A stretch of DNA of 32,000 nt from an uncultured Actinomycetes bacterium (GCA_963843975.1 CAWJMG010000003.1:1140001-1172000); one strand, 5' to 3'; shown: positions 3,467 through 25,754, numbered from the stretch's first letter. Numbers and translations are program-made. The notes: generated by a model from the sequence alone, not told the origin.

Positions 3467-4936
3467 TCAGCCGGCGCGGTCCTCGCGGCCGCGGACCTCG
3501 GCGATCCGCCAGCCCTCGCCCTCGAGGGCCGGCAGCGGCGTGAGCGTCACGGTCCACCAGGCCGCCGCACGCTCGGGCACATGCGTGGTGGCGCCGTCCT
3601 GCACCACGTCGTACGCCGCACGCCGGTCGCGGACGGCGAGGAGCACGCGGCCCGCCTCGGCGCGCAGCGGCCGGACCTCCTCGAGCACCAGCTCGCCTCC
3701 CTGGATCCGTGCGTCCGAGCCCGACATCCTCTGCAGCAGCGCGGCGTCCCGCCCCCAGGCGGCACCGGCGGGATCGACCCACCGGGCGAGGTCGTCGCGC
3801 GATCCGGAGGCCAGCGCCGTACGCCGCCCGGAGTCGAGTGCGGCGAGGACGCCCACCCAGTCGACCGCCTGCTGGAGGCCGGCGCCCGGGTCCAGTGCCG
3901 GCGGGTCTGCGATCGATGGCGTGGTGGCGGTCCGGGGGCCGCCATCGGTCGGCATCGGGTCGGCGCTCGCGGAGGACGTCTCCGCCACCGCCGCCTGCGA
4001 CGTCGCCGGAACCGCCTCGGCGGCTCGGGCACCGACCGCGGTGACGGCGCGGACCGCGCCCAGCCCCACCACCGCGACAAGGGCGACCGTCGCGATGGTG
4101 CGCAGGCTCATGGCCGGGCGCCGACGGGCCGGCGCCGCCTCGCGTCGGGCGCGGGCGCGGCCGCCGGGGGTGCCGGAAGCAGCGCGGGCGACCTCGGCGC
4201 CCGCCACCGCCGCGCTCGTGCTCCGCGGGGCGCCTGGACGTGGCGGTGCACCGGTCGCGGACCGTGGAGCACTGACAGCGTCGGGTTCCGCCTGCGGCAG
4301 CGCGGCGCCGGGCTGGTGCCAGAGGGCGTCGAGCAGGCTCTCGGGCCGGCCGCAGGCGCGCAGGAGTCCGGCAAGGCCCCCTGCCTCCGGACGCAGCAGC
4401 GGGTCGGAGTCCGAGGCCCGGAGCGCCGCGAGCACGAGCGCGCCCGGCGCTCCCCCGCGCCCGATGAGCAGACGCACCAGGTCGCCGACCGCGGCGACGT
4501 CGGCCTCGGGCGTCGGGCCGCCGAGCATCCCGGGCGCCGCCCGCCAGCCGAGGCCGGTGCCGGCGAGGTGCACCGAGCCGTCCGGGGCCACGAGGACGCT
4601 CATCGGGTCGACCGAGCCGTGCGCGAGACCGGCGTCGTGCAGGGCCACGAGCGCGTCGGTGACGGCGAGGGCGACGGCGAGCACGTGCCCGGCCCGCAGC
4701 GGCCCCGCGCGGCGCAGGGTGTCGAGGGGGACGGCGCCCGTGGGCACCTCGTGGACGAGGACGGCTCCGGCGTCGGACGCCGACCAGCGCACGAGCGGCG
4801 CGAGCGTCGGTGCCTCGACGGCTCTCAGGCGGTCGAGCGGGCGCACCAGCGCGGGCACGGCGTCCGGGTCGGCCGCGCACGGTCCGGTGCGCTCGACCGT
4901 GGGCAGGGGCTCGTGGGGGTCGTGGCTGCGGCTCAT
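3467..4936 (-). CDS. single-pass membrane protein with a degenerate Ser/Thr-kinase-like N-terminal domain and a C-terminal extracytoplasmic domain (function unknown)
   Basis: I prefer the ATG at 4936, which is M62 of the 550-aa track ORF. The segment ALHDAGLAHGSVDPMSVLVAPDGSVHLAGTGLG resembles kinase subdomains VIb-VII, but HRD is replaced by HGS and DFG by LAG. No Gly-rich loop or VAIK lysine is visible. An Arg/Ala-rich linker, a TM helix (LRTIATVALVAVVGLGAV) and a ~130-aa C-terminal domain follow. Confidence 0.45.
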   Translation of the reverse strand: MSRSHDPHEPLPTVERTGPCAADPDAVPALVRPLDRLRAVEAPTLAPLVRWSASDAGAVLVHEVPTGAVPLDTLRRAGPLRAGHVLAVALAVTDALVALHDAGLAHGSVDPMSVLVAPDGSVHLAGTGLGWRAAPGMLGGPTPEADVAAVGDLVRLLIGRGGAPGALVLAALRASDSDPLLRPEAGGLAGLLRACGRPESLLDALWHQPGAALPQAEPDAVSAPRSATGAPPRPGAPRSTSAAVAGAEVARAASGTPGGRARARREAAPARRRPAMSLRTIATVALVAVVGLGAVRAVTAVGARAAEAVPATSQAAVAETSSASADPMPTDGGPRTATTPSIADPPALDPGAGLQQAVDWVGVLAALDSGRRTALASGSRDDLARWVDPAGAAWGRDAALLQRMSGSDARIQGGELVLEEVRPLRAEAGRVLLAVRDRRAAYDVVQDGATTHVPERAAAWWTVTLTPLPALEGEGWRIAEVRGREDRAG

Positions 4937-5029
4937 GCCCGAACCGTGCCCGCTGCGCGCCGGGCCCCGCTGCCGCCGTCCACAGGATGCGGAGGTGCGT
5001 GCGCCGACGCGACCCGGGACGATCGAGGG

Positions 5030-6274
5030 GTGACTGCGCAGCGCGAGGCCGAGGTGGACGTCGTGGTCGTCGGGGCCGGCCTCGCCGGGCTCGCGGCCGC
5101 GCGGCATCTCGCGGCGCACGGCCGGTCGGCGGTGGTGCTCGAGGCGTCGGACGGCGTCGGCGGCCGGATGCGCAGCGACGTCGTGGACGGCGTGACGGTC
5201 GACCGCGGCTTCCAGCTGCTGAACCCGGCGTACCCGGAGGCGGCCCGCGTGCTCGACCTCGATGCGCTGGCGATGCGGCCGTTCACGGCCGGGGTGATGC
5301 TCGCGGGCGCCGACGGTCGCCGGCCCGTCGTGGCCGACCCGCGGCGTACGCCGTCAGCTCTGCGCTCGACCGTTCTGTCGACGCCGGGGTCGCGGATCCA
5401 GCAGCTGCGCTTCGCGGCGTACGCCGCCGGAGTCGGCTATCTGCCCGTCGACCGCATCATCGACCGCGTCGACACGACCATAGGCGTGCGGCTGAAGCCG
5501 TTCGGCGAGATCACCGACCGCGTGCTCGCGCCGTTCCTGGCCGGCGTGCTGTTCGACAGCTCGATGACGACCTCGCGCCGCTTCGTCGAGCTGGTGCTGA
5601 GGTCGTTCGTCCGCGGAACGCCGGCGGTCCCGGCTCGCGGCATGGGCGCGATCCCCGCGCAGCTCGCCGCCGGTCTCGACGTGCGTGTCTCGACGCCGGT
5701 CCGCGCTGTGTCGCCGACATCGGCGACGCTCGAGGACGGCACGGTCATCGCTGCGCGCGCGGTCGTGGTGGCGACCGACGCCGGTGCTGCGGCCTCGCTG
5801 CTGCCTGGGCTCGAGGTGCCGCCGATGAACCCCGGCACTACCTGGTGGCACCTTGCCGACGTTCCGGATTCCGCTCTCACCCAAGGGATCCCGGTGCTCG
5901 TGGTCGACCCCGACCGCCGCGGCCCGGTCGTCAACACGGTCGCCGTGTCGTCGGCGGCACCGGCGTACTCGCGGGACGGAGACGCGCTCGTGGCGAGCAC
6001 CGCGCTCGGGCTCGACGTCGACGAGTCCGACGTACGCCGCCACCTCGCACTGCTCCACGACTGCGACGTCAGCCGCTGGGACACCGTGGCCGTGCATCGC
6101 ATCGCGGGCTGCGTGCCCTCCATGCCGCCGGGTGCCCCGCTGACGCGCGAGCCGACGTACGACGGCGTGTACGTCACGGGCGACCACCGTGACACCGCCT
6201 CGATCCAGGGCGCCCTGGTCAGCGGACGCCGCATCGCCACCGCCCTGCTGCGCGAGCACCCGCACGGATCGTGA
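5030..6274 (+). CDS. NAD(P)/FAD-dependent oxidoreductase (amine-oxidase/phytoene-desaturase-like fold)
   Basis: VDVVVVGAGLAGLAAARHLAAHGRSAVVLEASDGVGGRM is a classic GxGxxG-(x17)-E-xxxxxGGR dinucleotide-binding start. The C-terminal part includes YVTGDHRDTASIQGALVSGRRIA. The start is taken as GTG 5030 and is uncertain. The gene is divergent from the kinase-like gene. Confidence 0.7.
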   Translation: MTAQREAEVDVVVVGAGLAGLAAARHLAAHGRSAVVLEASDGVGGRMRSDVVDGVTVDRGFQLLNPAYPEAARVLDLDALAMRPFTAGVMLAGADGRRPVVADPRRTPSALRSTVLSTPGSRIQQLRFAAYAAGVGYLPVDRIIDRVDTTIGVRLKPFGEITDRVLAPFLAGVLFDSSMTTSRRFVELVLRSFVRGTPAVPARGMGAIPAQLAAGLDVRVSTPVRAVSPTSATLEDGTVIAARAVVVATDAGAAASLLPGLEVPPMNPGTTWWHLADVPDSALTQGIPVLVVDPDRRGPVVNTVAVSSAAPAYSRDGDALVASTALGLDVDESDVRRHLALLHDCDVSRWDTVAVHRIAGCVPSMPPGAPLTREPTYDGVYVTGDHRDTASIQGALVSGRRIATALLREHPHGS

Positions 6275-11777: not shown

Positions 11778-12287
11778 TCAGCGGCGGACGAGGACCAGGC
11801 CGAGGCTGCGGTCGTGCAGGCCGCGCATGTCGCGGTCCCAGATCAGCGGCGGCACGAGCAGGCAGATCTGCAGGCTGCGCAGGAACGCGCGCACGAAGCC
11901 CGGCGGCGTGCCGTCGAGCCGCAGGACGCCGATGCCGAAGATCCGCTGGCCGAACGACGACCCCGTCGCCCAGGTGAGCAGCGTGAGCTGGACGAGGAAG
12001 ACCCCGAGCGTCGCGAAGGACGACGCCGGGGTGCCGTACGTGAGCCCGGAGAACAGCAGCCGCACCAGCAGGACGCTTGCGAACCAGTCGACCAGGAGCG
12101 CGCCGAGGCGGCGTCCCCAGCGGGCGATCGAGCCGGGGCCGTCGTCGGGGAGACCGAGGCGCTGACCGGGCCAGTCCTGGGTGGGCGGCAGCACGGCGCC
12201 GGGGCCGGACAGCCACGACCCGAGGTCGCGCCGGGTCAGGCCGGGGCCCTGCTGGTCCTCGCCGGGTGTGCTCTCGTCGCGTGCCAC
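11778..12287 (-). CDS. RDD-family membrane protein
   Basis: 169 aa. ...ARWGRRLGALLVDWFASVLL...GQRIFGIGVLRLDG... shows the RDD signature and TM helices. An RDD gene upstream of glnA is conserved in actinobacteria (Rv2219A-like). Confidence 0.7.
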   Translation of the reverse strand: MARDESTPGEDQQGPGLTRRDLGSWLSGPGAVLPPTQDWPGQRLGLPDDGPGSIARWGRRLGALLVDWFASVLLVRLLFSGLTYGTPASSFATLGVFLVQLTLLTWATGSSFGQRIFGIGVLRLDGTPPGFVRAFLRSLQICLLVPPLIWDRDMRGLHDRSLGLVLVRR

Positions 12288-12351
12288 CGGCCCAGGCTAT
12301 GCGGCGTACGGCGACGCCGCCGCCGCAGGTCGCGGCACCCGCGGAGCCCCG

Positions 12352-12402
12352 GTGTCAAGGCGGCGTCAGGGTTCCCGCCCGGGCGTCAAGATCGCGTCAA
12401 GA
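12352..12402 (+). promoter_or_regulatory. four 9-nt direct repeats in two 11-bp-phased pairs; candidate OmpR/KdpE-family response-regulator site
   Basis: GTGTCAAGG (12352-12360), GCGTCAGGG (12363-12371), GCGTCAAGA (12383-12391), GCGTCAAGA (12394-12402). Spacing within each pair is exactly 11 bp. They lie in the 122-bp divergent intergenic region between the RDD gene and the KimA-like gene. Confidence 0.4.
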
Positions 12403-12409
12403 CGGCGAG

Positions 12410-14368
12410 ATGCCGTCGCTGCCCCAGGCGTACGACATAGCCGTGAGCATCATCAAGCGCGCCTTCGTCGGCAGCCCCATCGACTCGTCCGAGGGCCACC
12501 GCACCCTCCTGTCCAAGCGCCTCGCCCTGCCGATCTTCTGCAGCGACCCGCTGTCCAGCGTCGCGTACGCGACCGACCAGATCCTGCTCGTCCTCGTGCT
12601 CGGCGGCACCGCCGCGCTGATGTTCACGCCCTGGGTCGCGCTCGCGGTCATCGCGCTCCTGGCGATCGTCGTCACCTCGTACCGACGCACGGTGCACGCC
12701 TACCCGAACGGTGGCGGCGCGTACGCCGTGGCGCAGGACAACTTCGGCCAGCGCACGGCGCTCGTGGCCGCGAGCGCGCTCGTCGTCGACTACATCCTCA
12801 CGGTCGCCGTCAGCGTGACCTCGGGAGTCGCGAACTTCACCTCCGCGTTCCCGGACCTCGCGCCGTACACGGTCGAGATCAGCGTCGGCCTGGTCATCGG
12901 GCTCACGCTGATGAACCTCCGAGGCGTGCGCGAGTCGGGCAAGACGTTCGCTGCGCCGACGTACCTGTTCATCGTCAGCGTCATGACCCTGATCGTCGTC
13001 GGCGGCGTGAAGATGCTGCTCGGCCAGCCGGTGGTCGCGGAGTCGGCGTCGCTGTCGTCGCAGGCCGCGCAGGCCACGGGGGCCGCCGCGATCTTCCTGC
13101 TGCTGCGCGCGTTCGCGTCGGGTTGCACCGCTCTCACCGGTGTCGAGGCGATCTCCAACGGCGTGCCCTACTTCAAGCCGCCGAAGTCGCAGAACGCTGC
13201 GGGCACCCTGCTCGCGATGGGCGTCCTGGCGATCACGATGTTCGGCGGCGTGACGTGGCTCGCGATCCAGGCCGGGGTGAAGTACTCCGAGGACAACGCC
13301 TCGCTCGGCCTCCCGTCGGACGTCGTGCAGCCGACGGTGCTCGCACAGCTCGGCACCGCGGTGTTCGGTGCCGGGTCGATCGGCTTCTTCGCGCTGCAGA
13401 TCTTCACGACGGCGGTGCTCGTGCTCGCCGCGAACACGGCCTACAACAGCTTCCCGATCATGGCCTCGGTGCTGGGCCGCGACGGCTACCTCCCGCGGCA
13501 GTTCGGGCGGCGCGGCGACAAGCTCGTCTTCAGCAACGGCATCCTGTTCCTCGCCGGCTCGTCGGTGCTGCTGATCATCGCGTTCGACGCGAGCGTGACC
13601 CGCCTGGTGCAGCTCTACATCCTGGGCGTGTTCCTCTCGTTCACGATCTCGCAGGCCGGCATGGTGCGGTGCTGGACGCGCACGCTGCGGACCGCGCTGC
13701 CGTCGGAGCGCACCCGGATCCAACGCGACCGCGTCGTGAACGGCCTCGGAGCGGCCGTGACCGCCGTCGTGCTGGTGATCGTGGTCTTCACCAAGTTCAC
13801 GCACGGCGCGTGGCTCGTGATCATCGCCGTCCCGCTGTTCTACGCCGTGATGATCGGCATCCACCGGCACTACCGCGCGCTCGACGACCGTATGGCTCCT
13901 GCGCCCGGCGGCGTGCGGCTGCCCAGCCGCGTGCACGCGATCGTGCTGGTCTCGCGGCTCCACTCGCCGGCCATGCAGGCCCTCGCGTTCGCCCGCGCGA
14001 CGCGCCCCGACCACCTCGAGGCCGTGCACGTGCAGACCGAGCGCAGCGACGTCCCTGCGCTGCAGCAGGCCTGGGCGGACCGCGGGATCCCCGTGCCGCT
14101 GGTGTGCCTGGAGTCGCCGTACCGCGACCTCACGCAGCCGATCCTCGACCACGTGCGGACGCTGCGGCGCACGAGCCCGCGCGACATCGTGGCCGTCTTC
14201 ATCCCCGAGTACGTCGTGAGCCACTGGTGGGAGGCGCTCCTGCACAACCAGAGCGCCCTGCGCCTGCGCGTGCGCCTGCGCCAGGAGAAGGGCGTCATCG
14301 TGATCTCGGTGCCGATGCAGCTCGAGGACGCGGCCCCGACCCAGGCTTTCGAGAACGCGGTGCGGTGA
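12410..14368 (+). CDS. kimA: APC-superfamily permease, KimA (YdaO)-like putative K+/H+ symporter with a cytoplasmic C-terminal domain
   Basis: 652 aa from ATG 12410; an alternative GTG at 12443 gives VSIIKRAFVGSPI. Motifs are KRLALPIFCSDPLSSVAYATDQIL, YPNGGGAY, LVVDYILTVAVS, FASGCTALTGVEAISNGVP, VLVLAANTAYNSFP and KLVFSNGI. A ~200-aa soluble tail ends ...WWEALLHNQSALRLRVRL.... These match my recollection of B. subtilis KimA. A conservative name would be APC family permease. Confidence 0.6.
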   Translation: MPSLPQAYDIAVSIIKRAFVGSPIDSSEGHRTLLSKRLALPIFCSDPLSSVAYATDQILLVLVLGGTAALMFTPWVALAVIALLAIVVTSYRRTVHAYPNGGGAYAVAQDNFGQRTALVAASALVVDYILTVAVSVTSGVANFTSAFPDLAPYTVEISVGLVIGLTLMNLRGVRESGKTFAAPTYLFIVSVMTLIVVGGVKMLLGQPVVAESASLSSQAAQATGAAAIFLLLRAFASGCTALTGVEAISNGVPYFKPPKSQNAAGTLLAMGVLAITMFGGVTWLAIQAGVKYSEDNASLGLPSDVVQPTVLAQLGTAVFGAGSIGFFALQIFTTAVLVLAANTAYNSFPIMASVLGRDGYLPRQFGRRGDKLVFSNGILFLAGSSVLLIIAFDASVTRLVQLYILGVFLSFTISQAGMVRCWTRTLRTALPSERTRIQRDRVVNGLGAAVTAVVLVIVVFTKFTHGAWLVIIAVPLFYAVMIGIHRHYRALDDRMAPAPGGVRLPSRVHAIVLVSRLHSPAMQALAFARATRPDHLEAVHVQTERSDVPALQQAWADRGIPVPLVCLESPYRDLTQPILDHVRTLRRTSPRDIVAVFIPEYVVSHWWEALLHNQSALRLRVRLRQEKGVIVISVPMQLEDAAPTQAFENAVR

Positions 14369-14391
14369 CCGCGGGTGCCAGACTCGGACGC

Positions 14392-15774
14392 ATGAGCAAC
14401 GGACGAGCGGCTGACGGCGCATCCCTGGTGCGCCGTCAGCCGCTAGTCCGCGTCGCCGCCTTCGTCGTCGGCGTCGCCCTCGTCTGGCTCGCAGCCTCGT
14501 TGGCATCGGCGCACGTGCCGCTCGACCTCGCAGCCGTGCTGCTGGTGATGCTCGCCGTCGTCGTGGCGCTCGCGCTGGTCACCGGCCCCGTGCTGGCGGT
14601 GCTCGCGTCGCTCGCCGTCGTGGTCATCGTCAACTGGTACCTCGTCCCGCCGTACGGCACCTTCCAGGTCGCGAGCACCGAGAACCTCGTCGCCCTCGTG
14701 GTCTTCCCACTCGTGGCAGCGGTGACCGCCGGGCTCGTCGAGCTCGCCGCGCGGGCCAGGGCACGCGATGCCGCGTCTGCCTCGCGCGCGATGCTCATGG
14801 GCGACGTCGCCTCCGACACCGCGGGGTCCCTCGAGCGCGTACGACGTGCCCTCGACCTGGCCGAGCTGCAGCTGATCCGCGCCGACGGCACCGTGGTCGC
14901 GCGGCGCGGCGAGCCCACCGCCGACGACGACGTGGTGCTCGACGCCCAGGGCCCCGACGGCTACCGCCTCGTCGGGACGGGAGTCCCGCGCATCGCCGAG
15001 GACCCCGACTTCATCGCCTCGCTCGCAGCGGCAGCCGTGCGCGCCTACGAGAGCGAGCAGCTCGACCTCGAGAAGTCACGATCCGTCGAGCTCGCAGCCG
15101 TCGACGAGGCGCGGTCCGCCCTGCTCGCGAGCGTCGGCCACGACCTTCGTACGCCCCTGGCCGGCCTGCGGCTCGCCGTCGACACGCTGCGCTCCCCCGA
15201 GGTCGAGCTCGACGACGAGGCGCGCACCGAGCTGCTCGACACCGTCGACGCTTCGACGACGCGGCTCGACGAGCTGATCTCCAACCTGCTCGACATGAGC
15301 CGGCTCGAAGCGGGCGGCCTGCCGGTGCGGCGCGAGGCCGTCGCGCTCTACGGCCTCGTCTCCGCGGCCGTCGCGGGCCGAGCCCCGGGCGCCGTGCTGG
15401 TCCAGGTGGACGACGCGCTCCCTCTCGTGTCCGCCGACCCCGTGCTGCTCGAGCGCGTGGTGGAGAACCTCGTGTCCAACGCTCTGCGGCACGGCCGCGC
15501 CGGCGTCGGGCGCCCCGTCGAGGTGCGCGCGACCCCGCGGACCTCGGCCGTCGTCGTCGACGTCGTCGACCACGGGCCGGGGCTCACGGCGGCCGTCACC
15601 GCCGCACCGCCGCTGGCCGCGTCGCGCAGTGCCGACGGCAGCACCGGGCTCGGCCTCGAGATCGTGCGCCGGTTCTGCGTGGCCATGGGCTCCGAGCTCG
15701 AGCTGCGCGAGACCGAGGGCGGCGGGCTCACCGCCCGCGTCACGCTGCCCATCGCCCGTGGGGGTGCGCGATGA
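14392..15774 (+). CDS. sensor histidine kinase, KdpD C-terminal-half type (DUF4118 membrane domain + short GAF-like linker + HisKA + HATPase_c), lacking the N-terminal KdpD/Usp sensor domains
   Basis: TM block ...VVVIVNWYLVPPYGTFQVASTENLVALVVFPLVAAVTAGLV is DUF4118-like. H-box SVGHDLRTPLAGL, N-box ENLVSNALRHG, G-boxes DHGPGL and GLGLEIV are present. The start is ATG 14392, or GTG 14365, which overlaps the KimA-like stop by 4 nt (GTGA). The stop overlaps the RR start (ATGA). Confidence 0.8.
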   Translation: MSNGRAADGASLVRRQPLVRVAAFVVGVALVWLAASLASAHVPLDLAAVLLVMLAVVVALALVTGPVLAVLASLAVVVIVNWYLVPPYGTFQVASTENLVALVVFPLVAAVTAGLVELAARARARDAASASRAMLMGDVASDTAGSLERVRRALDLAELQLIRADGTVVARRGEPTADDDVVLDAQGPDGYRLVGTGVPRIAEDPDFIASLAAAAVRAYESEQLDLEKSRSVELAAVDEARSALLASVGHDLRTPLAGLRLAVDTLRSPEVELDDEARTELLDTVDASTTRLDELISNLLDMSRLEAGGLPVRREAVALYGLVSAAVAGRAPGAVLVQVDDALPLVSADPVLLERVVENLVSNALRHGRAGVGRPVEVRATPRTSAVVVDVVDHGPGLTAAVTAAPPLAASRSADGSTGLGLEIVRRFCVAMGSELELRETEGGGLTARVTLPIARGGAR

Positions 15775-16700
15775 CCGACCTCCTCGTGGTCGAGGACGAC
15801 GAGCAGCTGCGCAAGGCGCTCGTGCTCACACTGCGCTCGCGCGGGCATGGCGTCACGTCGACCGCGTCCGGCGTCGAGGCAGTGGCGCTCGCGACCACGC
15901 GGAGGTTCGACGTCGTGGTGCTCGACCTCGGGCTGCCCGACCTCGACGGCGTGGCCGTGATCGAGCAGGTCCGCGCGACCAGCGGCGTGCCGATCGTGGT
16001 GCTGTCGGCCCGGCGCGACCAGGCCGACAAGGTGACCGCGCTCGACGCCGGCGCCGACGACTACCTGACCAAGCCGTTCGGCATGGAGGAGCTGCTCGCC
16101 CGGATCCGCGCCGCCCAGCGACGCGCCGGGCCGGTGGCGAGCGCCGGCACCGTGACGACGCCCGACTTCGTGGTCGACCTCGGCCGCAAGTCCGTGCACC
16201 TCGCCGACGGCACCGAGGTGCACCTGACCCCGACCGAGTGGGGCGTGCTCGAGGTGCTCGTGCGCGCGGACGGCCTGCTCGTGCCGGGGGCCGACCTCCT
16301 CGCCCAGGTGTGGGGCCCGGCGTACGGGAGCCAGACCAACTACCTGCGCGTCTACCTCGCGCAGCTGCGACGCAAGCTCGAGCCCGACCCTTCGCGGCCC
16401 CGCTACCTGATCACCGCGGCCGGCCTCGGCTACCGCTTCGATGTCACGGGCTCGGCCGGGGCCTCATCGGCACCCCGCCGCACAAGGATCCCGAGGCTCT
16501 GGCAGGCTGTGCCCCGACGCGCGGCGACGGTGCCGCGGGCCCGTTCGACGGGACCCGCGAGTGGGCCCCCGGGCGGCCCGTGCCCCCTTTTTCGCGGCTG
16601 TCATGCTCGGAAACAAGGTCGAAACAATCGGGACACCGACGGGAAATCCCGCCCCCGTAGGTTCCCCGAGAACGCTGAGGCGAGCCCGCCGCAGCTGTAG
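15771..16700 (+). CDS. OmpR/KdpE-family response regulator; the conserved REC + winged-helix part ends at ~16445 and the ORF then runs 84 more codons to the first stop
   Basis: MTDLLVVEDDEQLRKAL...DVVVLDLGLPDLDG...DDYLTKPF (REC domain); ...LTPTEWGVLEVLV...VWGPAYGSQTNYLRVYLAQLRRKLEPDPSRPRYLITAAGLGYRFDV (winged helix). The remaining tail is Arg/Pro-rich and crosses the glnA upstream regulatory region, so the 3' end is doubtful. Confidence 0.8.
   Translation: MTDLLVVEDDEQLRKALVLTLRSRGHGVTSTASGVEAVALATTRRFDVVVLDLGLPDLDGVAVIEQVRATSGVPIVVLSARRDQADKVTALDAGADDYLTKPFGMEELLARIRAAQRRAGPVASAGTVTTPDFVVDLGRKSVHLADGTEVHLTPTEWGVLEVLVRADGLLVPGADLLAQVWGPAYGSQTNYLRVYLAQLRRKLEPDPSRPRYLITAAGLGYRFDVTGSAGASSAPRRTRIPRLWQAVPRRAATVPRARSTGPASGPPGGPCPLFRGCHARKQGRNNRDTDGKSRPRRFPENAEASPPQL
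16600..16647 (+). promoter_or_regulatory. candidate GlnR operator upstream of glnA
   Basis: The arrangement is GTCAT-n5-GAAAC-n6-GAAAC-n6-GACAC-n6-GAAAT, with pentamers at 16600, 16610, 16621, 16632 and 16643. It resembles the actinomycete GlnR box gTnAc-n6-GaAAc repeated with ~11-bp phasing. It lies 105-150 nt upstream of the glnA ATG. Confidence 0.5.
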
Positions 16701-16751
16701 TGATGCCCCCACAGTCCGTCGGCGAAGCCGGGGACCCCGCGAGGAGGATGG

Positions 16752-18176
16752 ATGTTCAAGAACGCGGAGGAAGTGCTCCGGTTCATCCAGGACGAGGACG
16801 TTGTCTTCGTCGATGTGCGCTTCTGCGACCTGCCCGGAGTGATGCAGCACTTCAACGTGCCGGCGAAGTCCGTCGACATGGCGCTGTTCACCGACGGTCA
16901 GATGTTCGACGGGTCCTCGATCCGAGGCTTCCAGGCCATCCACGAGTCGGACATGAAGATCGTCCCGGACGTGAAGACGGCCTTCCTCGACCCGTTCCGC
17001 AAGGAGAAGACGCTCGTCATCAACTTCTCCATCCAGGACCCCTTCACCGGTGAGCCCTACTCGCGCGACCCGCGCAACGTCGCCGCCAAGGCCGAGGCCT
17101 ACCTCGCCACCACCGGCATCGCGGACACCGCGTTCTTCGCCCCCGAGGCCGAGTTCTACATCTTCGACGACGTCCGCTTCGAGACCAAGCAGAACGCCGG
17201 CTACTACTTCATCGACTCCGTCGAGGGCGCCTGGAACACCGGTCGCGCCGAAGAGGGCGGCAACCGCGGCTACAAGCCCCGCTACAAGGGCGGCTACTTC
17301 CCGGTGCCGCCGGTCGACCACTTCGCCGACCTCCGCGACGCGATGGTCCTCGGCCTCGAGCAGGTCGGCCTCTCGGTCGAGCGCGCGCACCACGAGGTGG
17401 GCACCGCCGGTCAGCAGGAGATCAACTACCGCTTCGACACGCTGCTCCAGGCCGCCGACGACGTCATGAAGTTCAAGTACGTCATCAAGAACGTCGCGTG
17501 GCACGCCGGCAAGACCGTGACCTTCATGCCGAAGCCGCTGTTCGGCGACAACGGCTCGGGTATGCACGTGCACTGCTCGCTCTGGAAGGACGGCGTCCCG
17601 CTGTTCTACGACGAGCTCGGGTACGGCGGCCTCTCGGACATGGCTCGCTGGTACATCGGCGGCCTGCTCAAGCACGCGCCGTCGCTGCTCGCCTTCACCA
17701 ACCCGACGGTGAACTCGTACCACCGTCTGGTGCCGGGCTACGAGGCTCCGGTCAACCTGGTCTACAGCCAGCGCAACCGCTCGGCCTGCATCCGCATCCC
17801 GATCACCGGCTCGAACCCGAAGGCCAAGCGCATCGAGTTCCGCTGCCCCGACCCGTCGAGCAACCCGTACCTCGCGTTCTCGGCGATGCTCATGGCCGGC
17901 CTCGACGGCATCAAGAACAAGATCGAGCCCCCGCAGCCCGTCGACAAGGACCTCTACGAGCTCCCGCCGGACGAGGCCGCTGCGATCCCGCAGGTGCCCG
18001 CGTCGCTGACCGAGGTGCTCGACGCGCTCGAGGCCGACCACGACTTCCTCCTCGAGGGCGGCGTCTTCACGCCCGACCTCATCGAGACGTGGATCGAGTT
18101 CAAGCGCACGATGGAGGTCGACCCGATCCGCCTCCGTCCGCACCCGCACGAGTTCGAGCTCTACTACGACATCTGA
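16752..18176 (+). CDS. glnA: glutamine synthetase, type I (GlnA1-like)
   Basis: 474 aa, with RBS GAGGAGGA at 16741-16748. [29 protein letters not shown]...[14 protein letters not shown]...[13 protein letters not shown]...[13 protein letters not shown]...[28 protein letters not shown]...KDLYELPP. The last motif is an adenylylation-type Tyr context. Confidence 0.95.
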
Positions 18177-18437: not shown

Positions 18438-19790
18438 CTACGGGCGCTCCCGTACCCAGAGATCGACATCTACCGGGTCCGACCCGCCCGAGGCGATGCG
18501 CGCCGTCGCCTGCTCCCCCGACGGAACTCGAACCGAACCGACGCCCTCAGCAGCTGACCAAGTCACCTCGAGGATGTCGGCGTCGACGACCATGTCGAGA
18601 GTGCCGCCGCGTCCACGCTCGCCTGGGATGGTCATCAAGACCTCGCCATCAGCGCGTTCCACCGCGACAAGCCCTGAAGCCGCATCGGCAACGAGGGACC
18701 AGCCAGAGTGCGGCATGACGACGTCCACCGTCAGCTGTGAGTCCGCCGCGAGACCGGAGACGAGCCTCCACGGAGTGCTCGCCGGAGGTGCCATATCCGT
18801 CGCCGTTCCCGGCTCCAAGCGCGTCTTCAGCAGGTGAAGGGGAAATCGGCCCCAGAGGGCAGGGTGCTGGGCTACGTGGAGCTTGGCGTCCCTGACGGAC
18901 AGCCGATGAGGCAGGCTCATCGCCGAGCACCAGGGTGACCCTGCGGGTGCCGTGTTGCCTTCCTCCCTGAGCCAGGAGATGGCCGTGGGTGATCCGTCCT
19001 TGTCGACGAAGGTCGTCGTCGCGTAGAGCTGCGGTCCGTGGCTGAAGGTGCCCCATGAACTCGGGCAGAACGTCGACCCGTCGTACTCGCCGAGCGCGTA
19101 GACGACGTTGTGCAGGGTGTCGTCTTCCCACACCGACACCAACATGACCCAGTGCCCGTCGACCTGGAGGAACTGCGGGCACTCCCAGACCTTGCCGCTC
19201 CATACCGGTGCGCGTTCGTCGTTGCTGCGCGAGGCGAGCACGCCCTCGAACTCCCACTCCGTCAGGTCAGCCGACACGCCGTACTGCAGCGCACAGCCGC
19301 CGTGCCCCACGAGCCCGGCCCCGATCACGGCCACCCAGCTGGCCCCGCGCCGCCGGATCTGTGGGTCGCGGAAGGCGATGATGTCGAGTCCCGGAGGAGG
19401 CCCGTCGAGAACGGCGTCCGGTGGGGTGCGGATCCAGCCGGCCATGGTACGAGCAGGTCTCGCGAGGGCCACCGTTCCTCTGCCCCAGTCGTCGTGGGCG
19501 ATGCGGGTGTACGCGAGTACCGGGCCGTCCTGGTCCACGACGGCAGACCCCGACCAGCAGCCGATCTCGCCCACAACTGGTGCGAGAGCGACCTCCAGCT
19601 CCGTCCAGACGATGAGGTCATCGGATAGAGCCTGACCCCAATGGCACGCCGGGTGCCAGGTGACACCGTCCGGGTAGTACTGGAAGAACATGTGGTAGCG
19701 GCCGTCTACGTAGACGATGCCGTGCGGATCGTTCGTCCAGCCCTGCTGGGTTGTGAAGTGCAGCGCCGGGCGCTGCCGATCGTTACTCAC
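18438..19790 (-). CDS. glycoside hydrolase family 32 (beta-fructofuranosidase / sucrose-6-phosphate hydrolase / exo-fructanase type), cytoplasmic
   Basis: 450 aa from GTG 19790 (VSNDRQRPALHFTTQQGWTNDPHG). The three GH32 catalytic motifs are present: WTNDPHG (WMNDPNG), AFRDP (RDP) and WECP (EC). No signal peptide is visible. The upstream 96 codons of the track ORF overlap the GH172 gene and are Arg-rich nonsense. The start overlaps the GH172 stop (GTGAGTAA). Confidence 0.85.
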   Translation of the reverse strand: MSNDRQRPALHFTTQQGWTNDPHGIVYVDGRYHMFFQYYPDGVTWHPACHWGQALSDDLIVWTELEVALAPVVGEIGCWSGSAVVDQDGPVLAYTRIAHDDWGRGTVALARPARTMAGWIRTPPDAVLDGPPPGLDIIAFRDPQIRRRGASWVAVIGAGLVGHGGCALQYGVSADLTEWEFEGVLASRSNDERAPVWSGKVWECPQFLQVDGHWVMLVSVWEDDTLHNVVYALGEYDGSTFCPSSWGTFSHGPQLYATTTFVDKDGSPTAISWLREEGNTAPAGSPWCSAMSLPHRLSVRDAKLHVAQHPALWGRFPLHLLKTRLEPGTATDMAPPASTPWRLVSGLAADSQLTVDVVMPHSGWSLVADAASGLVAVERADGEVLMTIPGERGRGGTLDMVVDADILEVTWSAAEGVGSVRVPSGEQATARIASGGSDPVDVDLWVRERP

Positions 19791-21132
19791 CGGACAGGTA
19801 CCTCCGGCGGATGTCGGCAGCCTGGGCGACGTTGCCGTCCGAAGATGCCCGCGTCTCTTGCGCACGGCCGGCGAGGAAGTCCCGCCGTGCCTTCTGGAAT
19901 GCTTCGTTCCGTTCAGCCGCACCCGCGCGAGCCGCCTTCTGCGCGTCGGTTGTCGCCTGCGCAGGCGTCGCGGTGCCGGGGCCGGTGGCGCGCAGCGGGA
20001 GACGGTCCCCGACCGGTAGGACGCCGAACGGGACCGTGGGCAGCTTCTGATACCAGTAGGCGGTCGAGGAGAAGTCATCAGCGAGGTGGTTGGCGTGCCC
20101 GTGCTCGATGGTGACCTTGATGCGCTTCTTGAACCTCACCGGGTCGGTGATGTGGAAGCGGTAGGAGTGCTGGAAGCCAGGGACGTCTTCTTCGTGGACG
20201 ATGGTCCCGCACATAGGGAATGCGTTGTGCTGCATGCCCCACGCGTGACCGAAGTAGTCCTCGCTGCCAGTGCCGTGAAGGCTGGGAGGCCAGGTGTCGT
20301 CGTCGATGAAGATCATGTCGTCGCCCTCGCCCCACCAGGAACCCTGGAAGTGGCGAACTGCCAGATTGCAGCCGACGTAGTGGCCCTCCCCCTCGATATC
20401 CAGGATGACGTAGTTGCCCTGGCCGTCGAGGTTCGGAACGGATCCGACTTCGTAGCTGTTGGTCTGAAGGTCCGGACCCCAACCGTCGCAAGGCTTCTCC
20501 CTTCGCCATAGCGCGTGGAAGTAGGCGGTGGTCTCAGGCAGCGGCTCCCGGTAAAGCTCGTAGTCGATGTAGAAGTACTGCAAGTAGGGGATGTCGTTCT
20601 GGTTCTCGACCTCGATCCGGGCCCGCGTCCCGAAGGGCATCTGGAAGTAGCTGTTGAACGACGCGCTCCCGCCGAACGTGTGCGTCTCTACGTCCTTGGC
20701 CGATACCGACAAGGGCATCGAGGAGTAGTTGCCCGACAGGGAGTTCATGAGGCCGAAGAAGTCACCGAGCGGCACGAGGACACTCGGGTGCTCCTGGTCG
20801 TCCCAGAAGATCTTGAGCAGGATCTTGCGGTAGTAGTCCGGGTCGACGATCTCCCAGTTCACCCCGAGGGCGTTGTGGATCTCGAGCATGGGGACGCCGA
20901 CGAGCTCGGGTGGGATGAGCCCGGGCCCTGGGGTGATGCGACAGGACTGGGTCATCCAGATGTGGGTGATGCAGCCTGGGCCTTCGATGTCGGCGAGGAC
21001 GACGGATTCACCTGGCCCCACTACCCAGTTGTCCTTGTTGCGACCGCTCTGGTCCCAACTGGACGAGCGCGCGGATCTGGCGTCGCGGACATGGGTGAGG
21101 TCGGCGAGCAGGCCGTGAGGGCCGGGTGCCAT
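19783..21132 (-). CDS. DUF2961 / glycoside hydrolase family 172 protein
   Basis: 449 aa, with RBS AAGGAA 5 nt upstream of ATG 21132. ...GPGCITHIWMT...LLKIFWDDQ...VPLGDFFG...AYFHALWRRE...GEGHYVGCNL...WWGEGDDMIFIDDD...LHGTGSEDYF... are motifs I associate with DUF2961. The last ~70 aa are an Ala/Arg/Gln-rich tail. No signal peptide is visible. Confidence 0.75.
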   Translation of the reverse strand: MAPGPHGLLADLTHVRDARSARSSSWDQSGRNKDNWVVGPGESVVLADIEGPGCITHIWMTQSCRITPGPGLIPPELVGVPMLEIHNALGVNWEIVDPDYYRKILLKIFWDDQEHPSVLVPLGDFFGLMNSLSGNYSSMPLSVSAKDVETHTFGGSASFNSYFQMPFGTRARIEVENQNDIPYLQYFYIDYELYREPLPETTAYFHALWRREKPCDGWGPDLQTNSYEVGSVPNLDGQGNYVILDIEGEGHYVGCNLAVRHFQGSWWGEGDDMIFIDDDTWPPSLHGTGSEDYFGHAWGMQHNAFPMCGTIVHEEDVPGFQHSYRFHITDPVRFKKRIKVTIEHGHANHLADDFSSTAYWYQKLPTVPFGVLPVGDRLPLRATGPGTATPAQATTDAQKAARAGAAERNEAFQKARRDFLAGRAQETRASSDGNVAQAADIRRRYLSGE

Positions 21133-21166
21133 GTGTGTTCCTTTCGAGGTTGAGGAGGGGGCTCGT

Positions 21167-22078
21167 TCAGCCCTTGACGCCGGTCGAGGTGAGGCTCTCG
21201 ACGATCCAGCGCTGCGCCACGAGGTAGACGAGGAAGGCAGGCAGGATCGCGATCGTCGTGGCCGCCATGATCATGGCCACGTCGCCGGTCTTGTAGGGGC
21301 CGAGCATGAGGACGAGGGCGAGCGGCATCGTGGCTGTGTCGATGCTGTTGAGGAAGATCGACGGGGCGAAGTAGGCGTTCCAGGTAGCGAGGAACGTGAT
21401 GACCCCCAGTGCCGAGAGGCCCGGTTTGGCCAGCGGAAGCGCCACGAGGCGGTACACGGTGAACGGACCGGCTCCGTCGATGCGAGCCGCCTCGAGGATC
21501 TCCTCGGGGAGGCCCAAGAAGAACTGCCGCATGAGGAACACGCCGAATGCGCCGGTTAGCGCAGGGAGGATCAGCGACAGCGGGTTGTTGATCAGTCCCA
21601 GGTTCCGCATGAGGATGAACAACGGGATGATCGTCACCTGGACGGGGACCATCAGCGAAGCCAGCAGCGTCACGAGGAGCACGTTTCTCAGCGGGAATCG
21701 CAGGCGGGCGAAGGCATACCCGGCCATGGGGCACAGCACGACTTGGGCGAGGGTCACGACGATCGCGATGACGGCGCTGTTGAGCATGTTGTGCAGGAGC
21801 GGCACGGGCCCGGTGACTGCGTTGATGTAGTTCTCCCCCTGAACGGGGAAGGGCAACCAGTTGGGCGGTAGGTCGTAGGCCTTGGCCGCAGGACGCATCG
21901 ACGTGGAGAACATCCACAGGAACGGCGCCACCATGCCCAAGGCGCCAAGACCAAGGACGATGGTGGCGACTACTCCGCCTGGGCCGGACCTTCGAACTCG
22001 CTGCGACTGCCCTCGACGTCGGGAGGCATGGCGCACCGTCTCCGCAGCTCCGCGCCCTAGGTCTTGCTGGCTACTCAC
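21167..22078 (-). CDS. carbohydrate ABC transporter permease (MalG/CUT1 type)
   Basis: 303 aa with six predicted TM segments. EAA loop: LPEEILEAARIDGAGPFTVYRLVALPLAKPG. The start overlaps the upstream permease stop by 8 nt. Confidence 0.85.
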   Translation of the reverse strand: MSSQQDLGRGAAETVRHASRRRGQSQRVRRSGPGGVVATIVLGLGALGMVAPFLWMFSTSMRPAAKAYDLPPNWLPFPVQGENYINAVTGPVPLLHNMLNSAVIAIVVTLAQVVLCPMAGYAFARLRFPLRNVLLVTLLASLMVPVQVTIIPLFILMRNLGLINNPLSLILPALTGAFGVFLMRQFFLGLPEEILEAARIDGAGPFTVYRLVALPLAKPGLSALGVITFLATWNAYFAPSIFLNSIDTATMPLALVLMLGPYKTGDVAMIMAATTIAILPAFLVYLVAQRWIVESLTSTGVKG

Positions 22079-22997
22079 TGTGGACCCACCTTCGTCGCAT
22101 GCGGAACTGGACCGCCGTCAGGGCGAGGATGATGAGGAACAGGGTCATAGACACGGCAGATGCGTAGCCCATCCGGAACTTCTGGAAGGCCAGCTCGGCG
22201 ATGTACATGACGATCGAGCGGGTGGAGTCCCCCGGCCCTCCACCGGTGAGAACGATGATCGACTCGTAGATCTGGAATGCACCGATCGTGGTGATCGTGA
22301 CGTTGAAGAAGATCGCCGGACTGATCATCGGAGCCACCACTCGACGGAAGCGGGTCCACGGACCGGCTCCGTCGATCTCGGCGGCCTCGATGATGTCCTT
22401 GGGCACGTCCTGGAGCGCCGAGACGAAGATCAACATCGCGAAACCGACGTTGCGCCACGTGTCGACGATGATGACAGTGGCTTTGCCTGCGACGTCACCG
22501 TTGAGCCAGTCGATTCTGGGTAGTCCGACCGAGGTCAGGTAGTAGTTGACGATCCCTGTGTCTTGCTGGAACAGGGCCTGCCAGATCACCGACACGTAGA
22601 CGAGACCGACCAAGGACGGGAAGAAGTAGGCGGACTTCAGGACTTGGCTGATCCCGGCGGGCAGCCGGCGGTTGACAAGGACGGCGAGGATCAACGCGAA
22701 TCCGTTGATCAGGATCACGGCCGCCACCACGTAGATGATCGTGTTCAGGTATGTCGTGTGGAGACGCTCGTCGGTCAGCATCCGCCTGTAGTTGTCCAGG
22801 CCGATGAACTTGGGTGCGGTGACGATGTCGTACTTGGTGAAGCTCAGGTACGCGGCCACGACTAGCGGGCCAAGCACGAACAGCAGAAACCCGAGCACGG
22901 CAGGGCCGATGAACAGGTATCCGGTGACCGCCTCGCTCCGGCGCGCAGGATTGCGCCTGCGCGCCGGAGCCTCGAGGTCGGAGGTCATCGTTGGCAC
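22071..22997 (-). CDS. carbohydrate ABC transporter permease (MalF/CUT1 type)
   Basis: 308 aa. ...AVTGYLFIGPAVLGFLLFVLGPL... with EAA loop VPKDIIEAAEIDGAGPWTRFRRVVAPMISPA. Confidence 0.85.
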   Translation of the reverse strand: MPTMTSDLEAPARRRNPARRSEAVTGYLFIGPAVLGFLLFVLGPLVVAAYLSFTKYDIVTAPKFIGLDNYRRMLTDERLHTTYLNTIIYVVAAVILINGFALILAVLVNRRLPAGISQVLKSAYFFPSLVGLVYVSVIWQALFQQDTGIVNYYLTSVGLPRIDWLNGDVAGKATVIIVDTWRNVGFAMLIFVSALQDVPKDIIEAAEIDGAGPWTRFRRVVAPMISPAIFFNVTITTIGAFQIYESIIVLTGGGPGDSTRSIVMYIAELAFQKFRMGYASAVSMTLFLIILALTAVQFRMRRRWVHSE

Positions 22998-23043
22998 CTC
23001 TCCGCGAGTTCTTGCAGGTGGGGTTTGGACGGGCCGGCCTTCG

Positions 23044-24396
23044 TCAGCCTTCGTCCGCGAAAGCGGTTGTCACTTCCTGGTCGGCCTTGGCGAGTGCCTC
23101 GGAAGCAGGAGTGCCCGCGTAGATCTCCTCCATGGCTCGGGTCACCGCCGGGTCGAGGACGTTGAACACCGTGGGCGCTGCCACCGGCTTCGCCGTGGAC
23201 AGAACCGCGTAGTAGAGCTGCGAGTTCTTGGGAGGTGCAGCAAGGAACTCCGGGCTCGACGCTGCGGTCTTGGAAGCTGGGTTGCCCGACCCGAGCTTGG
23301 CCCACTCTGCCTGCGTTTCGGCGCCGGAGAGCTCCTTGATGTACTCCCAGGCCAGGTCCTTGTTCTCCGACGACGGCGAGATTCCGAAGCCGGAGGTGCC
23401 GAACACGGTCGAGGCCTCGGTCTTCTTCGGCCACGGCAGGATGTCGTAGTCAGCGAAGCCTGCGGTCTTGAACCCGTTGACGAGCCAGTGGCCCGCCCCG
23501 GTCATGGCGATCTTCCCGGCAGGGAACAGCTGGTAGGGGTCTGCGCCCTTGGGTGCCGGCGCCACGCCGTCCTTCACGAGGTCAGCCACGAACTGGTACG
23601 CCTCGGCGACCTTGGGGTCGGTCAGGTTGGATGCCGTCCAGTCTGCGTTCAGTTGGCTGGTGCCGTTGGTGTACAGCCAGGGCGTGAGGCCGAAGTTGAA
23701 GTTCGGGATGCCGAAGCCGTACACCTTGGAGCCGCCACTCCCCGTCGTCAGCTTCTGTGCGTCCGCCTTGAACTCGTCCCATGTCCAGTCAGGGTTCGGG
23801 GTGATGCCTGCCGCCGCGAACATCTTGGTGTTGTAGTAGATCACCATCTGCTGCCACGTCCCTGGCATCAGGTACTGGGTGTCGTTGACAGCGAGACTGT
23901 TGAGCAGGGTCGGGTCCACGTCGCCCGCGATCTTGGCGCCCTCGGGATCGTTGGCGATGTAGTCGCTGATCGGGGCGAACATATCCTTGGACACGCCGAG
24001 GCGGACACCTTCGATGGCGATGTTGATGACGTCGGGAGAGTCACCGGCCGCCTGCTGAGCCACGAGCTTGTTCACGTACTCGGTCCACGTGGTGATGGGC
24101 GTGAAGTTGTCGTTGACCGTGACGTTGGGGTACTTCTTCTTGAACCGCTCCACAACGCCCTTGTAGACCGCCTGATCTGCCGGGTCTCCCCAGTTGGAGA
24201 TGGTCAGAGTGGCCGTGATGTCACTGGGCGGGGCGGTGTAGCCAGCTCCCGATGCCGTGGCGGAGCCTGAGCCGGAGGTCGACGGGCTCCCGTCCGAACT
24301 GCCCGACGAGCAGCCGGTTACGAGCAGGGCTGCACCGAGGAGAGCAGCGCTGGGTGCCAGCAGCCTGCGGAGTCCGGTGCGACGTGTTGCTGACAT
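23044..24396 (-). CDS. ABC transporter extracellular solute-binding lipoprotein (sugar/oligosaccharide, family 1)
   Basis: 450 aa. The signal peptide has a lipobox, LLGAALLVTGCSSGSS. A Ser/Gly-rich linker and a typical SBP_bac_1 body follow (...TLTISNWGDP...YYNTKMF...GAGHW...). RBS AAGGGA. Confidence 0.85.
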   Translation of the reverse strand: MSATRRTGLRRLLAPSAALLGAALLVTGCSSGSSDGSPSTSGSGSATASGAGYTAPPSDITATLTISNWGDPADQAVYKGVVERFKKKYPNVTVNDNFTPITTWTEYVNKLVAQQAAGDSPDVINIAIEGVRLGVSKDMFAPISDYIANDPEGAKIAGDVDPTLLNSLAVNDTQYLMPGTWQQMVIYYNTKMFAAAGITPNPDWTWDEFKADAQKLTTGSGGSKVYGFGIPNFNFGLTPWLYTNGTSQLNADWTASNLTDPKVAEAYQFVADLVKDGVAPAPKGADPYQLFPAGKIAMTGAGHWLVNGFKTAGFADYDILPWPKKTEASTVFGTSGFGISPSSENKDLAWEYIKELSGAETQAEWAKLGSGNPASKTAASSPEFLAAPPKNSQLYYAVLSTAKPVAAPTVFNVLDPAVTRAMEEIYAGTPASEALAKADQEVTTAFADEG

Positions 24397-24399
24397 CGC

Positions 24400-25503: not shown

Positions 25504-25516
25504 GTGAAGTCCCATC

Positions 25517-25572
25517 GAAACGATTGCGCGAAACGTTTGCGCCAGAATCTCGCTCGTGTGTGTGCTTGTCAA
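25517..25572 (-). promoter_or_regulatory. candidate island promoter (-35 TTGACA) with a tandem LacI-type operator
   Basis: The minus strand reads TTGACA (25572-25567), then 17 nt, then GATTCT (25549-25544). Next comes GCGCAAACGTTTC GCGCAATCGTTTC (25542-25517), then 13 nt, then ATG. AAACGTTT (25531-25538) is a perfect palindrome of the LacI/CcpA-type core. Confidence 0.4.
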
Positions 25573-25754
25573 CCACCTGCGCACAGTTGGTGGCCACCAC
25601 CTTGAGCCAGCGCCCGCAGCTGCTGTCCGTTTCGCACAGGATTGGCACAACTCGATACCTGGCCGGCCGTACTCGCACACGAGCACATGTCCCGACGTGT
25701 GTAACGCTGCAGGTCAGAGGCCCGGATAGGGCCCGAGACCGGGAGGTTCAGGTG

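Follow-up and report, generated by a model that had tools for sequence, protein, structure and literature searches.

Can the sensor and regulator that serve a K+ pump be dedicated instead to a K+ importer of a different class? This question is raised by a 32,000-nucleotide stretch of DNA from an uncultured Actinomycetes bacterium (GCA_963843975.1, CAWJMG010000003.1:1140001-1172000), hereafter the window, in which three plus-strand genes encoding a KimA-type transporter, a short KdpD-type sensor histidine kinase and a KdpE-type response regulator sit between a minus-strand RDD-family gene and glnA (Table 1; positions are counted from the first letter of the window). KdpD and KdpE form the textbook K+-sensing two-component system (TCS), which is taken to be dedicated to regulating the KdpFABC pump, and KimA is known as a transporter of Firmicutes that is controlled by cyclic di-adenosine monophosphate (c-di-AMP). 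Our analysis, made on sequence alone, points to a K+-limitation-inducible, autoregulated KimA operon run by its own short KdpD/KdpE pair, and we put the probability of this interpretation at about 0.72.

A first-pass annotation of this DNA had read the three genes as a KimA-like transporter, a kinase that begins directly at DUF4118 and lacks the N-terminal KdpD/Usp module, and a KdpE-type regulator, and our results agree with each of these assignments. A phmmer search with the transporter against PDB 6S3K (B. subtilis KimA) gave 413 bits (E=2e-122), with residues 15-637 aligned to residues 5-604 of the 607 in KimA, the cytosolic domain included, at 40% identity. Using published lists of the residues of the K+ site and of the c-di-AMP site (10.1101/2023.07.05.547876; PMC10284832), we found all eight K+-coordinating or proton-coupling residues to be identical (D36, Y43, D117, T121, S125, T230, E233 and Y377), and the protein is predicted to transport K+. 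The c-di-AMP contact residues R337, H579, N580, Q581 and S582 are kept, as is R587; the changes in the pocket are V457/L461 to L/M, which are conservative, P479 to L and W592 to Q. The best Pfam match is AA_permease_2 (94.8 bits, compared with 27 bits for K_trans), and homologues are publicly annotated as "amino acid transporter" or "APC family permease." The amino acid permease label is a generic superfamily label, and B. subtilis KimA is itself deposited under the name "APC family permease." Translation probably starts at GTG 12443 rather than at ATG 12410, because the closest homologues are 641 residues long; the N terminus from this GTG also lines up with that of B. subtilis KimA.

If the transporter is a KimA, what kind of kinase accompanies it? 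Pfam recognizes DUF4118, HisKA and HATPase_c in the kinase, and a collinear alignment matches it to the C-terminal half of KdpD (34% identity, E=2e-44, to residues 409-857 of a canonical actinobacterial protein of 858 residues). Pfam finds neither the N-terminal KdpD domain (PF02702, an atypical serine kinase) nor a Usp domain in it, and a canonical KdpD N-terminal query gave zero matches by tblastn over the whole 32-kb window. In the AlphaFold2 model (mean predicted local distance difference test score 85.6), four transmembrane (TM) helices with very short loops come first, then a small linker domain of alpha/beta type (residues 146-197), then a long DHp helix with His250 and last a CA domain. 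When this model was searched against the PDB, only DHp-CA histidine kinases and phytochromes were returned, with no GAF match for the linker. The H, N and G boxes are invariant across 58 homologues. ATG 14392 and GTG 14365 are equally plausible start codons from the sequence: the nearest homologues are 460 residues long and start at the equivalent of ATG 14392, and in more distant relatives the kinase gene overlaps kimA by 4 nt.

Genes for the pump are missing as well. Neither kdpA, kdpB nor kdpC is present in the 32-kb window, and none was found within ~8 kb in nearly all other loci that carry the same three genes (the triad). In an unrooted neighbor-joining tree of kinase cores, the full-length KdpDs cluster as a single clade that excludes the short kinases linked to kimA, and as far as this tree can tell the short form is an old lineage and not a recent truncation. 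We conclude that the kinase has the core of the KdpD family but not the features of KdpD that are tied to the pump, namely the N-terminal domain and linkage to kdpFABC.

The regulator contains Response_reg and Trans_reg_C domains (Pfam), and Asp52 and the acidic pocket are present in its sequence. KdpE is the best of its 106 NCBIfam matches and covers the full length (1-223, 216.7 bits). The recognition helix, NYLRVYLAQLRRKLE, is common to this regulator and canonical actinobacterial KdpE, and when we compared 32 triad regulators with 26 regulators of canonical kdpFABC-kdpDE loci, the two sets had the same consensus, LTPTEW...LL.EVWGP...YLRVY.AQLRRKLEPDP...GYRF. We regard the regulator as a probable KdpE orthologue, for which DNA binding and activation that depend on phosphorylation are predicted.

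The regulator reading frame has an unusual end. It runs for 309 codons, ~79 too many, as relatives have 228-233 residues. Its codon 232 is TCA (16464-16466), at the position where the closest relative, L001 (loci retrieved in this study are numbered with the prefix L), has its TGA stop in the alignment. The resulting tail crosses a terminator-like hairpin and the conserved region upstream of glnA before it ends at TAG 16698-16700. Either a real lesion or a variant of the assembly may account for the lost stop. The hairpin itself is the likely end of the kimA-kinase-regulator transcript.

How would the pair reach its target? The intergenic region between the RDD gene and kimA is 155 bp long and holds two predicted KdpE-type boxes in tandem, of the pattern GCGTCAAGA-N2-GCGTCAAGA, which lie 60 and 91 nt 5′ of the kimA GTG at 12443. 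Each box has its two direct half-sites 11 bp apart, an arrangement that is classic for regulators of the OmpR family. The exact sequence GTCAAGA-N4-GTCAAGA occurs once in the window, where 3e-5 occurrences are expected, and that one copy is 58 nt 5′ of kimA. Searching the window with up to three mismatches gave two boxes compared with 1.05 expected, which is not significant alone; the significance of the boxes comes from the exact match, its position and its conservation across genomes. In M. smegmatis, footprinting has given CCGTAAAGAAACCATCAAGGCC as the minimal KdpE site (PMC5401905), and the proximal box matches it at 15 of 22 bases, with the same half-sites and spacing.

The boxes are visible 5′ of kimA in nearly all triad loci, usually as two dimers ~31-32 bp apart. 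To score them we used a matrix that was seeded with the M. smegmatis site and trained only on the kdpA upstream regions of 23 canonical loci; circularity was thus avoided, since the training loci were all canonical kdpFABC loci. When both strands of each entire locus were scored in this way, the top-ranking site fell 60-106 nt 5′ of kimA in 28 of 29 triad loci. The reverse test, with a matrix made from kimA upstream regions, placed a site scoring 15 bits or more in the 450 nt 5′ of kdpA in 20 of 24 canonical loci, and a box ~190 nt 5′ of a kimA paralogue in 10/10 Streptomyces loci. Between the boxes and the gene, a candidate −10 element has counterparts (TACGAC or TAGGAC) equally far from the GTG in L001, L003 and L006. 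Since this element lies 6 nt before the GTG, the kimA mRNA may be leaderless or near-leaderless.

Control of kimA by a riboswitch was considered and rejected. A c-di-AMP (ydaO/yuaA) riboswitch or other Rfam family was not found anywhere in the window at gathering score, and a search of positions 12100-12600 gave no match even at E≤10.

Is this arrangement peculiar to one genome? Look-ups anchored on the kinase (49-80% identity) and on KimA (70-79% identity) each recovered the triad in three of three cases. We then used a kinase alignment to scan GTDB, each species being represented by a single genome, and classified the best 80 loci by tblastn. In ~33 of these 80, kimA lies beside the short kinase and regulator (2 with kimA divergent, 2 cut by contig ends); the remaining loci are mostly canonical operons of kdpABC, full-length kdpD and kdpE. 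The triad occurs in Nanopelagicales, Cellulomonas, Actinotalea, Dermatophilaceae, Micromonosporaceae, Actinophytocola, Sporichthya, Propionibacteriaceae, Aeromicrobium, one Streptomyces and Thermoleophilia/Solirubrobacterales, and therefore spans two classes, Actinomycetes and Thermoleophilia. Its cultured carriers include Cellulomonas sp. T2.31MG-18 (L042) and Streptomyces sp. NPDC005017 (L039). It has two unrelated genomic contexts, RDD/glnA in the lineage of the window and CN_hydrolase/YkuD in another lineage, from which it follows that the three genes travel as a unit. As it was seen again in dozens of genomes, the arrangement exceeds chance. The first-pass annotation had proposed that a Kdp-type TCS is hard-wired here to KimA and had called this an unusual rewiring. 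Synteny in two contexts and the KdpE-type boxes 5′ of kimA argue for the wiring that it predicted, but unusual it is not, given its frequency among the best kinase relatives in GTDB species genomes.

KimA-type genes are repeatedly tied to the Kdp regulon in Actinomycetota, as shown by the triads, by kimA genes placed after kdpE and by a kimA paralogue placed before kdpABC. In three loci (L041, L046 and L049), kimA is appended to a canonical operon in the order kdpABC-kdpD-kdpE-kimA. Nine Streptomyces loci (Table 1) have a KimA paralogue of 37-38% identity directly 5′ of kdpA-kdpB-kdpC.

These linked loci differ in their details. KdpE-type boxes precede kimA on the minus strand, that is, in inverted orientation, in L041 (9298-9412) and L049 (10505-10607); in L046, full-length kdpD is present as a tandem pair and no box is recognizable. 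In the Streptomyces loci with the paralogue, where the KdpE-type box stands ~190 nt ahead of it, a full-length KdpD gene with a box of its own and no adjacent regulator is found 1-3 kb upstream. One locus, L021, has two extra minus-strand boxes ~190-220 nt upstream (~5757-5810), in addition to a plus-strand pair ahead of kimA, and a short kdpA-like fragment in divergent orientation at 4461-4712; these extras may be the remnant of a divergent kdp operon that shared the regulatory region.

The window has a GC content of 72% and comes from an actinomycete; the closest relatives of its genes are in uncultured Candidatus Nanopelagicales metagenome-assembled genomes (MAGs), at 80-97% identity, and no entry identical to its KimA was retrieved from the assembly index. 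Third-position GC (GC3) gives a coding signal in the expected frames from ~12420 to ~16450, in line with the three co-directional open reading frames (ORFs) of the first-pass annotation. Both junctions that it had pointed out are present: in GTGA at 14365-14368, the kimA stop TGA (14366-14368) overlaps the possible kinase GTG start at 14365, and in ATGA at 15771-15774 the kinase stop is joined to the regulator start. It had also viewed the cluster as an insertion into a conserved RDD-glnA neighborhood. This view is supported by 11 metagenome contigs, retrieved via the neighboring DUF4191 gene, that keep the order lipA-DUF4191-RDD(−)-glnA without the triad, the RDD gene being immediately before glnA with a gap of ~120-290 bp. 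The triad occupies this point in the window, in L001-L004 and in L086 and L087. Flanking repeats that would point to a mobile element were not found around the triad.

Table 1. Positions of the features discussed, in the window unless loci are named (aa, amino acids)
Feature	Position	Strand	Evidence or remark
RDD-family membrane protein gene	11778..12287	-	Pfam RDD, E=2e-10; upstream boundary of the inserted module
Distal KdpE-type box (predicted), GTGTCAAGGCGGCGTCAGGGTT	12352..12373	+	21.9 bits, second-best matrix site of the window; weaker copy
Proximal KdpE-type box (predicted), GCGTCAAGATCGCGTCAAGACG	12383..12404	+	Exact core; 28.8 bits, top site of the window (kdpFABC-only matrix)
Candidate -10 element, TACGAC	12431..12436	+	6 nt before GTG 12443; proposed from conservation
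kimA-like K+/H+ symporter gene, 641 aa	12443..14368	+	phmmer against PDB 6S3K; alternative start ATG 12410
Short KdpD-type sensor histidine kinase, 460 aa	14392..15774	+	Pfam, AlphaFold2; alternative start GTG 14365
Kinase His250 codon	15139-15141	+	DHp helix
KdpE-type response regulator, REC with Asp52 and OmpR-type winged helix	15771..16466	+	NCBIfam, Pfam
Read-through tail of the regulator ORF, 79 codons	16464..16700	+	Alignment with L001; GC3 signal gone after ~16450
Terminator-like hairpin with T-run	16571..16592	+	Sole terminator-like site in 12200-16800; conserved in the L001 intergenic region
glnA (glutamine synthetase)	16752..18176	+	Pfam Gln-synt_C, E=1e-138; downstream boundary of the inserted module
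Streptomyces loci with a KimA paralogue	L038, L043, L050, L051, L057, L058, L060, L071, L083		

How might such a module work? We propose that it is a self-contained K+-uptake module, in which the gene for a KimA-type symporter is transcribed together with its own TCS. When K+ is scarce, the kinase would autophosphorylate on His250 and the phosphate would pass to Asp52 of the regulator. The phosphorylated regulator would bind the two direct-repeat boxes, centered ~50 and ~80 bp 5′ of the kimA start, and activate a promoter with a weak −35 element, so that kimA would be expressed more strongly and, through autoregulation, the kinase and regulator genes as well. With enough K+, the kinase would act as a phosphatase and expression would drop. 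Since the pocket for binding c-di-AMP is largely conserved, the activity of KimA at high K+ may be inhibited post-translationally by this nucleotide. There would thus be two tiers of control as in Bacillus, with a TCS in place of the riboswitch. We infer from the sequence features described above that K+ is the signal, that the regulator activates rather than represses, that K+ is transported, that c-di-AMP inhibits and where transcription starts.

The domains that the kinase has kept fit this scheme. In KdpD, the N-terminal domain is a serine kinase that phosphorylates Ser162 of KdpB and inhibits the pump, and the proposed K+-sensing sites are all in the TM/GAF domains (PMC11018627). The short kinase retains the parts that hold these proposed sites, the membrane block and the linker. 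We suggest that the N-terminal module is gone because there is no KdpB in the KimA module to phosphorylate.

Several observations weigh against our interpretation. Against the NCBIfam KdpD equivalog, the kinase scores 96 bits where the cut-off is 1123, and the score of the regulator is likewise below the KdpE equivalog cut-off of 325 bits. The lost stop, with its 79-residue tail, may impair the regulator, or it may be an assembly error. A Sporichthya MAG, L030, is the sole triad locus without a recognizable box; its KimA is the most divergent of the triad set (48% identity). A sigma-70 consensus scan found no promoter, as expected since this is a high-GC actinomycete, and the kimA promoter and transcription start are predictions from the DNA sequence.

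Other explanations of the locus must also be weighed. It is possible, although unlikely, that what the TCS answers is not K+ but, for example, ionic strength or turgor, Na+ or NH4+, or pH, and that KimA is induced within a general response, osmotic or linked to nitrogen. In M. smegmatis, kdpFABC is responsive to Na+ and NH4+ in addition to low K+ (PMC5401905), the module adjoins glnA in the lineage of the window, and what is sensed by a kinase with almost no extracytoplasmic loops is not obvious from its sequence. However, the triad also occurs away from glnA, the TM and linker domains that have been kept are the reported seat of the K+-sensing sites of KdpD (PMC11018627), and the target gene encodes a K+ importer, with kdpFABC preceded by the same boxes. 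Could the adjacency to kimA instead be secondary, with the short pair mainly controlling a kdpFABC operon elsewhere in the genome and kimA as a passenger or minor target? The boxes directly 5′ of kimA in all but one of the 29 loci, the overlapping or nearly abutting genes that move together between contexts, and the absence of kdpA, kdpB, kdpC or a gene for the KdpD N-terminal domain within ~8 kb of nearly all triads make this very unlikely, even though the regulator and its boxes are indistinguishable from canonical KdpE and its sites, so that cross-regulation is plausible, and even though there are species in which the serine-kinase and histidine-kinase halves of KdpD are on separate chains (PMC11018627).

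A different concern is that the module is decaying in this particular genome, the lost stop having given a defective regulator and a kimA gene that is no longer properly controlled. With TCA in place of TGA, the ORF does run on across the terminator of the operon and the conserved stretch ahead of glnA, but the catalytic and DNA-binding residues are all intact and GC3 and codon structure are normal in all three genes. Moreover, one substituted base may reflect a variant in the assembly or the population, and a tail at the C terminus does not necessarily destroy function; we consider decay distinctly unlikely. Hardly credible, finally, is that the transporter is an amino acid/polyamine permease of the APC superfamily and that the Kdp-like system controls something unrelated to potassium. 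The best Pfam match and the public annotations would agree with such a role, but B. subtilis KimA is likewise deposited under the APC family permease name; the transporter matches KimA over its full length, including the cytosolic domain that is specific to KimA, its K+-site and proton-coupling residues are all conserved, and kimA homologues are also appended to kdpFABC-kdpDE operons. A K+-inducible KimA operon with its own short KdpD/KdpE pair is the interpretation that we prefer.

How does this operon compare with known systems? It resembles the KdpD/KdpE-kdpFABC systems of E. coli and M. smegmatis (PMC5401905) in the DUF4118, linker and DHp/CA core of the kinase, in the KdpE-type recognition helix, and in a DNA site that has two direct half-sites 11 bp apart and is near the M. 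smegmatis footprint. [quoted passage not shown] Compared with B. subtilis KimA (YdaO; 6S3K, 8B70, 8B71), the transporter is alike over its full length, in its K+ and proton residues and in its cytosolic domain. Unlike the B. subtilis gene, kimA of the module has no detectable ydaO riboswitch and has KdpE-type boxes and a dedicated TCS instead, and two residues of the B. subtilis c-di-AMP network, W592 and P479, are replaced.

The architecture of the kinase has a precedent. A survey of KdpD proteins lists kinases with only the TM, GAF and DHp/CA domains as a natural version of KdpD, with an architecture as found here (Silberberg et al., 2024; PMC11018627). Those short kinases occur in species with KdpFABC and are paired with a separate KdpD/Usp serine kinase, whereas the kinase of the module is linked to kimA at a locus with neither a serine-kinase partner nor a Kdp pump gene. 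The operons in Lentzea, Actinokineospora, Actinomadura and Streptomyces in which a KimA-type gene follows kdpFABC-kdpD-kdpE or a kimA paralogue precedes kdpABC (L041, L046, L049; L038-L083) share the KimA-type gene, the KdpE box and the tie to Kdp, but they keep full-length KdpD and the pump and the module has neither. We found no description of a module of kimA, short KdpD and KdpE in the searchable literature, and a 2023 review of Streptomyces lists KimA-like proteins as unstudied. The parts themselves are known families. What is new is the proposed wiring, in which a KdpE-type operator and a short, pump-independent KdpD would be dedicated to a KUP-type importer, and which is conserved across two classes of Actinomycetota.

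If our interpretation is correct, the same sensor-regulator logic and the same DNA site would drive a different class of K+ importer in many Actinomycetota. The kinase would be a natural minimal KdpD, which could allow K+ sensing by the membrane and linker domains to be separated from the pump-directed role of the serine kinase. The module bears on how the membrane half of KdpD senses K+ by itself, on how KdpD was assembled in evolution, and on whether transcriptional control by a TCS and post-translational control by c-di-AMP come together in one transporter. It also offers a rule for annotation, by which, in Actinomycetota, an "APC family permease" with a "DUF4118 protein" and then a response regulator after it would be read as a K+-uptake module.

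Which form of KdpD came first? We offer, tentatively and with more doubt than confidence, the idea that the short kinase is the original K+-sensing kinase, which would predate the fusion to a KdpB-directed serine kinase and would have had a KUP/KimA-type transporter as its first client; it may even sense K+ via KimA as a co-sensor. The unrooted kinase tree is compatible with an ancestral short kinase, although it is no proof of one. Behind the idea of KimA as co-sensor are the near lack of extracytoplasmic loops in the kinase and its tight translational linkage to kimA.

A second hairpin lies within the first codons of the kinase gene (14400-14450; 22 bp, 95% complementary, 7-nt loop). It was considered as an attenuator and rejected as a conserved element of the module, as it is weak in L001 and missing in more distant relatives, but in the lineage of the window it might reduce expression of the kinase and regulator relative to kimA. 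Downstream of the module, the ~270 bp ahead of glnA (16480-16751) are nearly identical in L001. This region contains, at 16600-16634, the sequence GTCAT-N5-GAAAC-N6-GAAAC, which we take to resemble actinobacterial GlnR boxes.

Two other parts of the window deserve mention. A minus-strand block at 18438-25686 has a GC content of 62-68%, compared with ~72%, and encodes a GH32 glycoside hydrolase, a DUF2961 protein, two ABC permeases, a solute-binding protein and a LacI regulator; the block resembles an island acquired for fructan or sucrose utilization. In the ORF of 897 codons at 3581-6274, the match to amine oxidase is confined to the last ~400 residues. The true start of this ORF is probably near 5050, as a long ORF on the minus strand (3467-5119) overlaps its first half and the L003 homologue has 409 residues.

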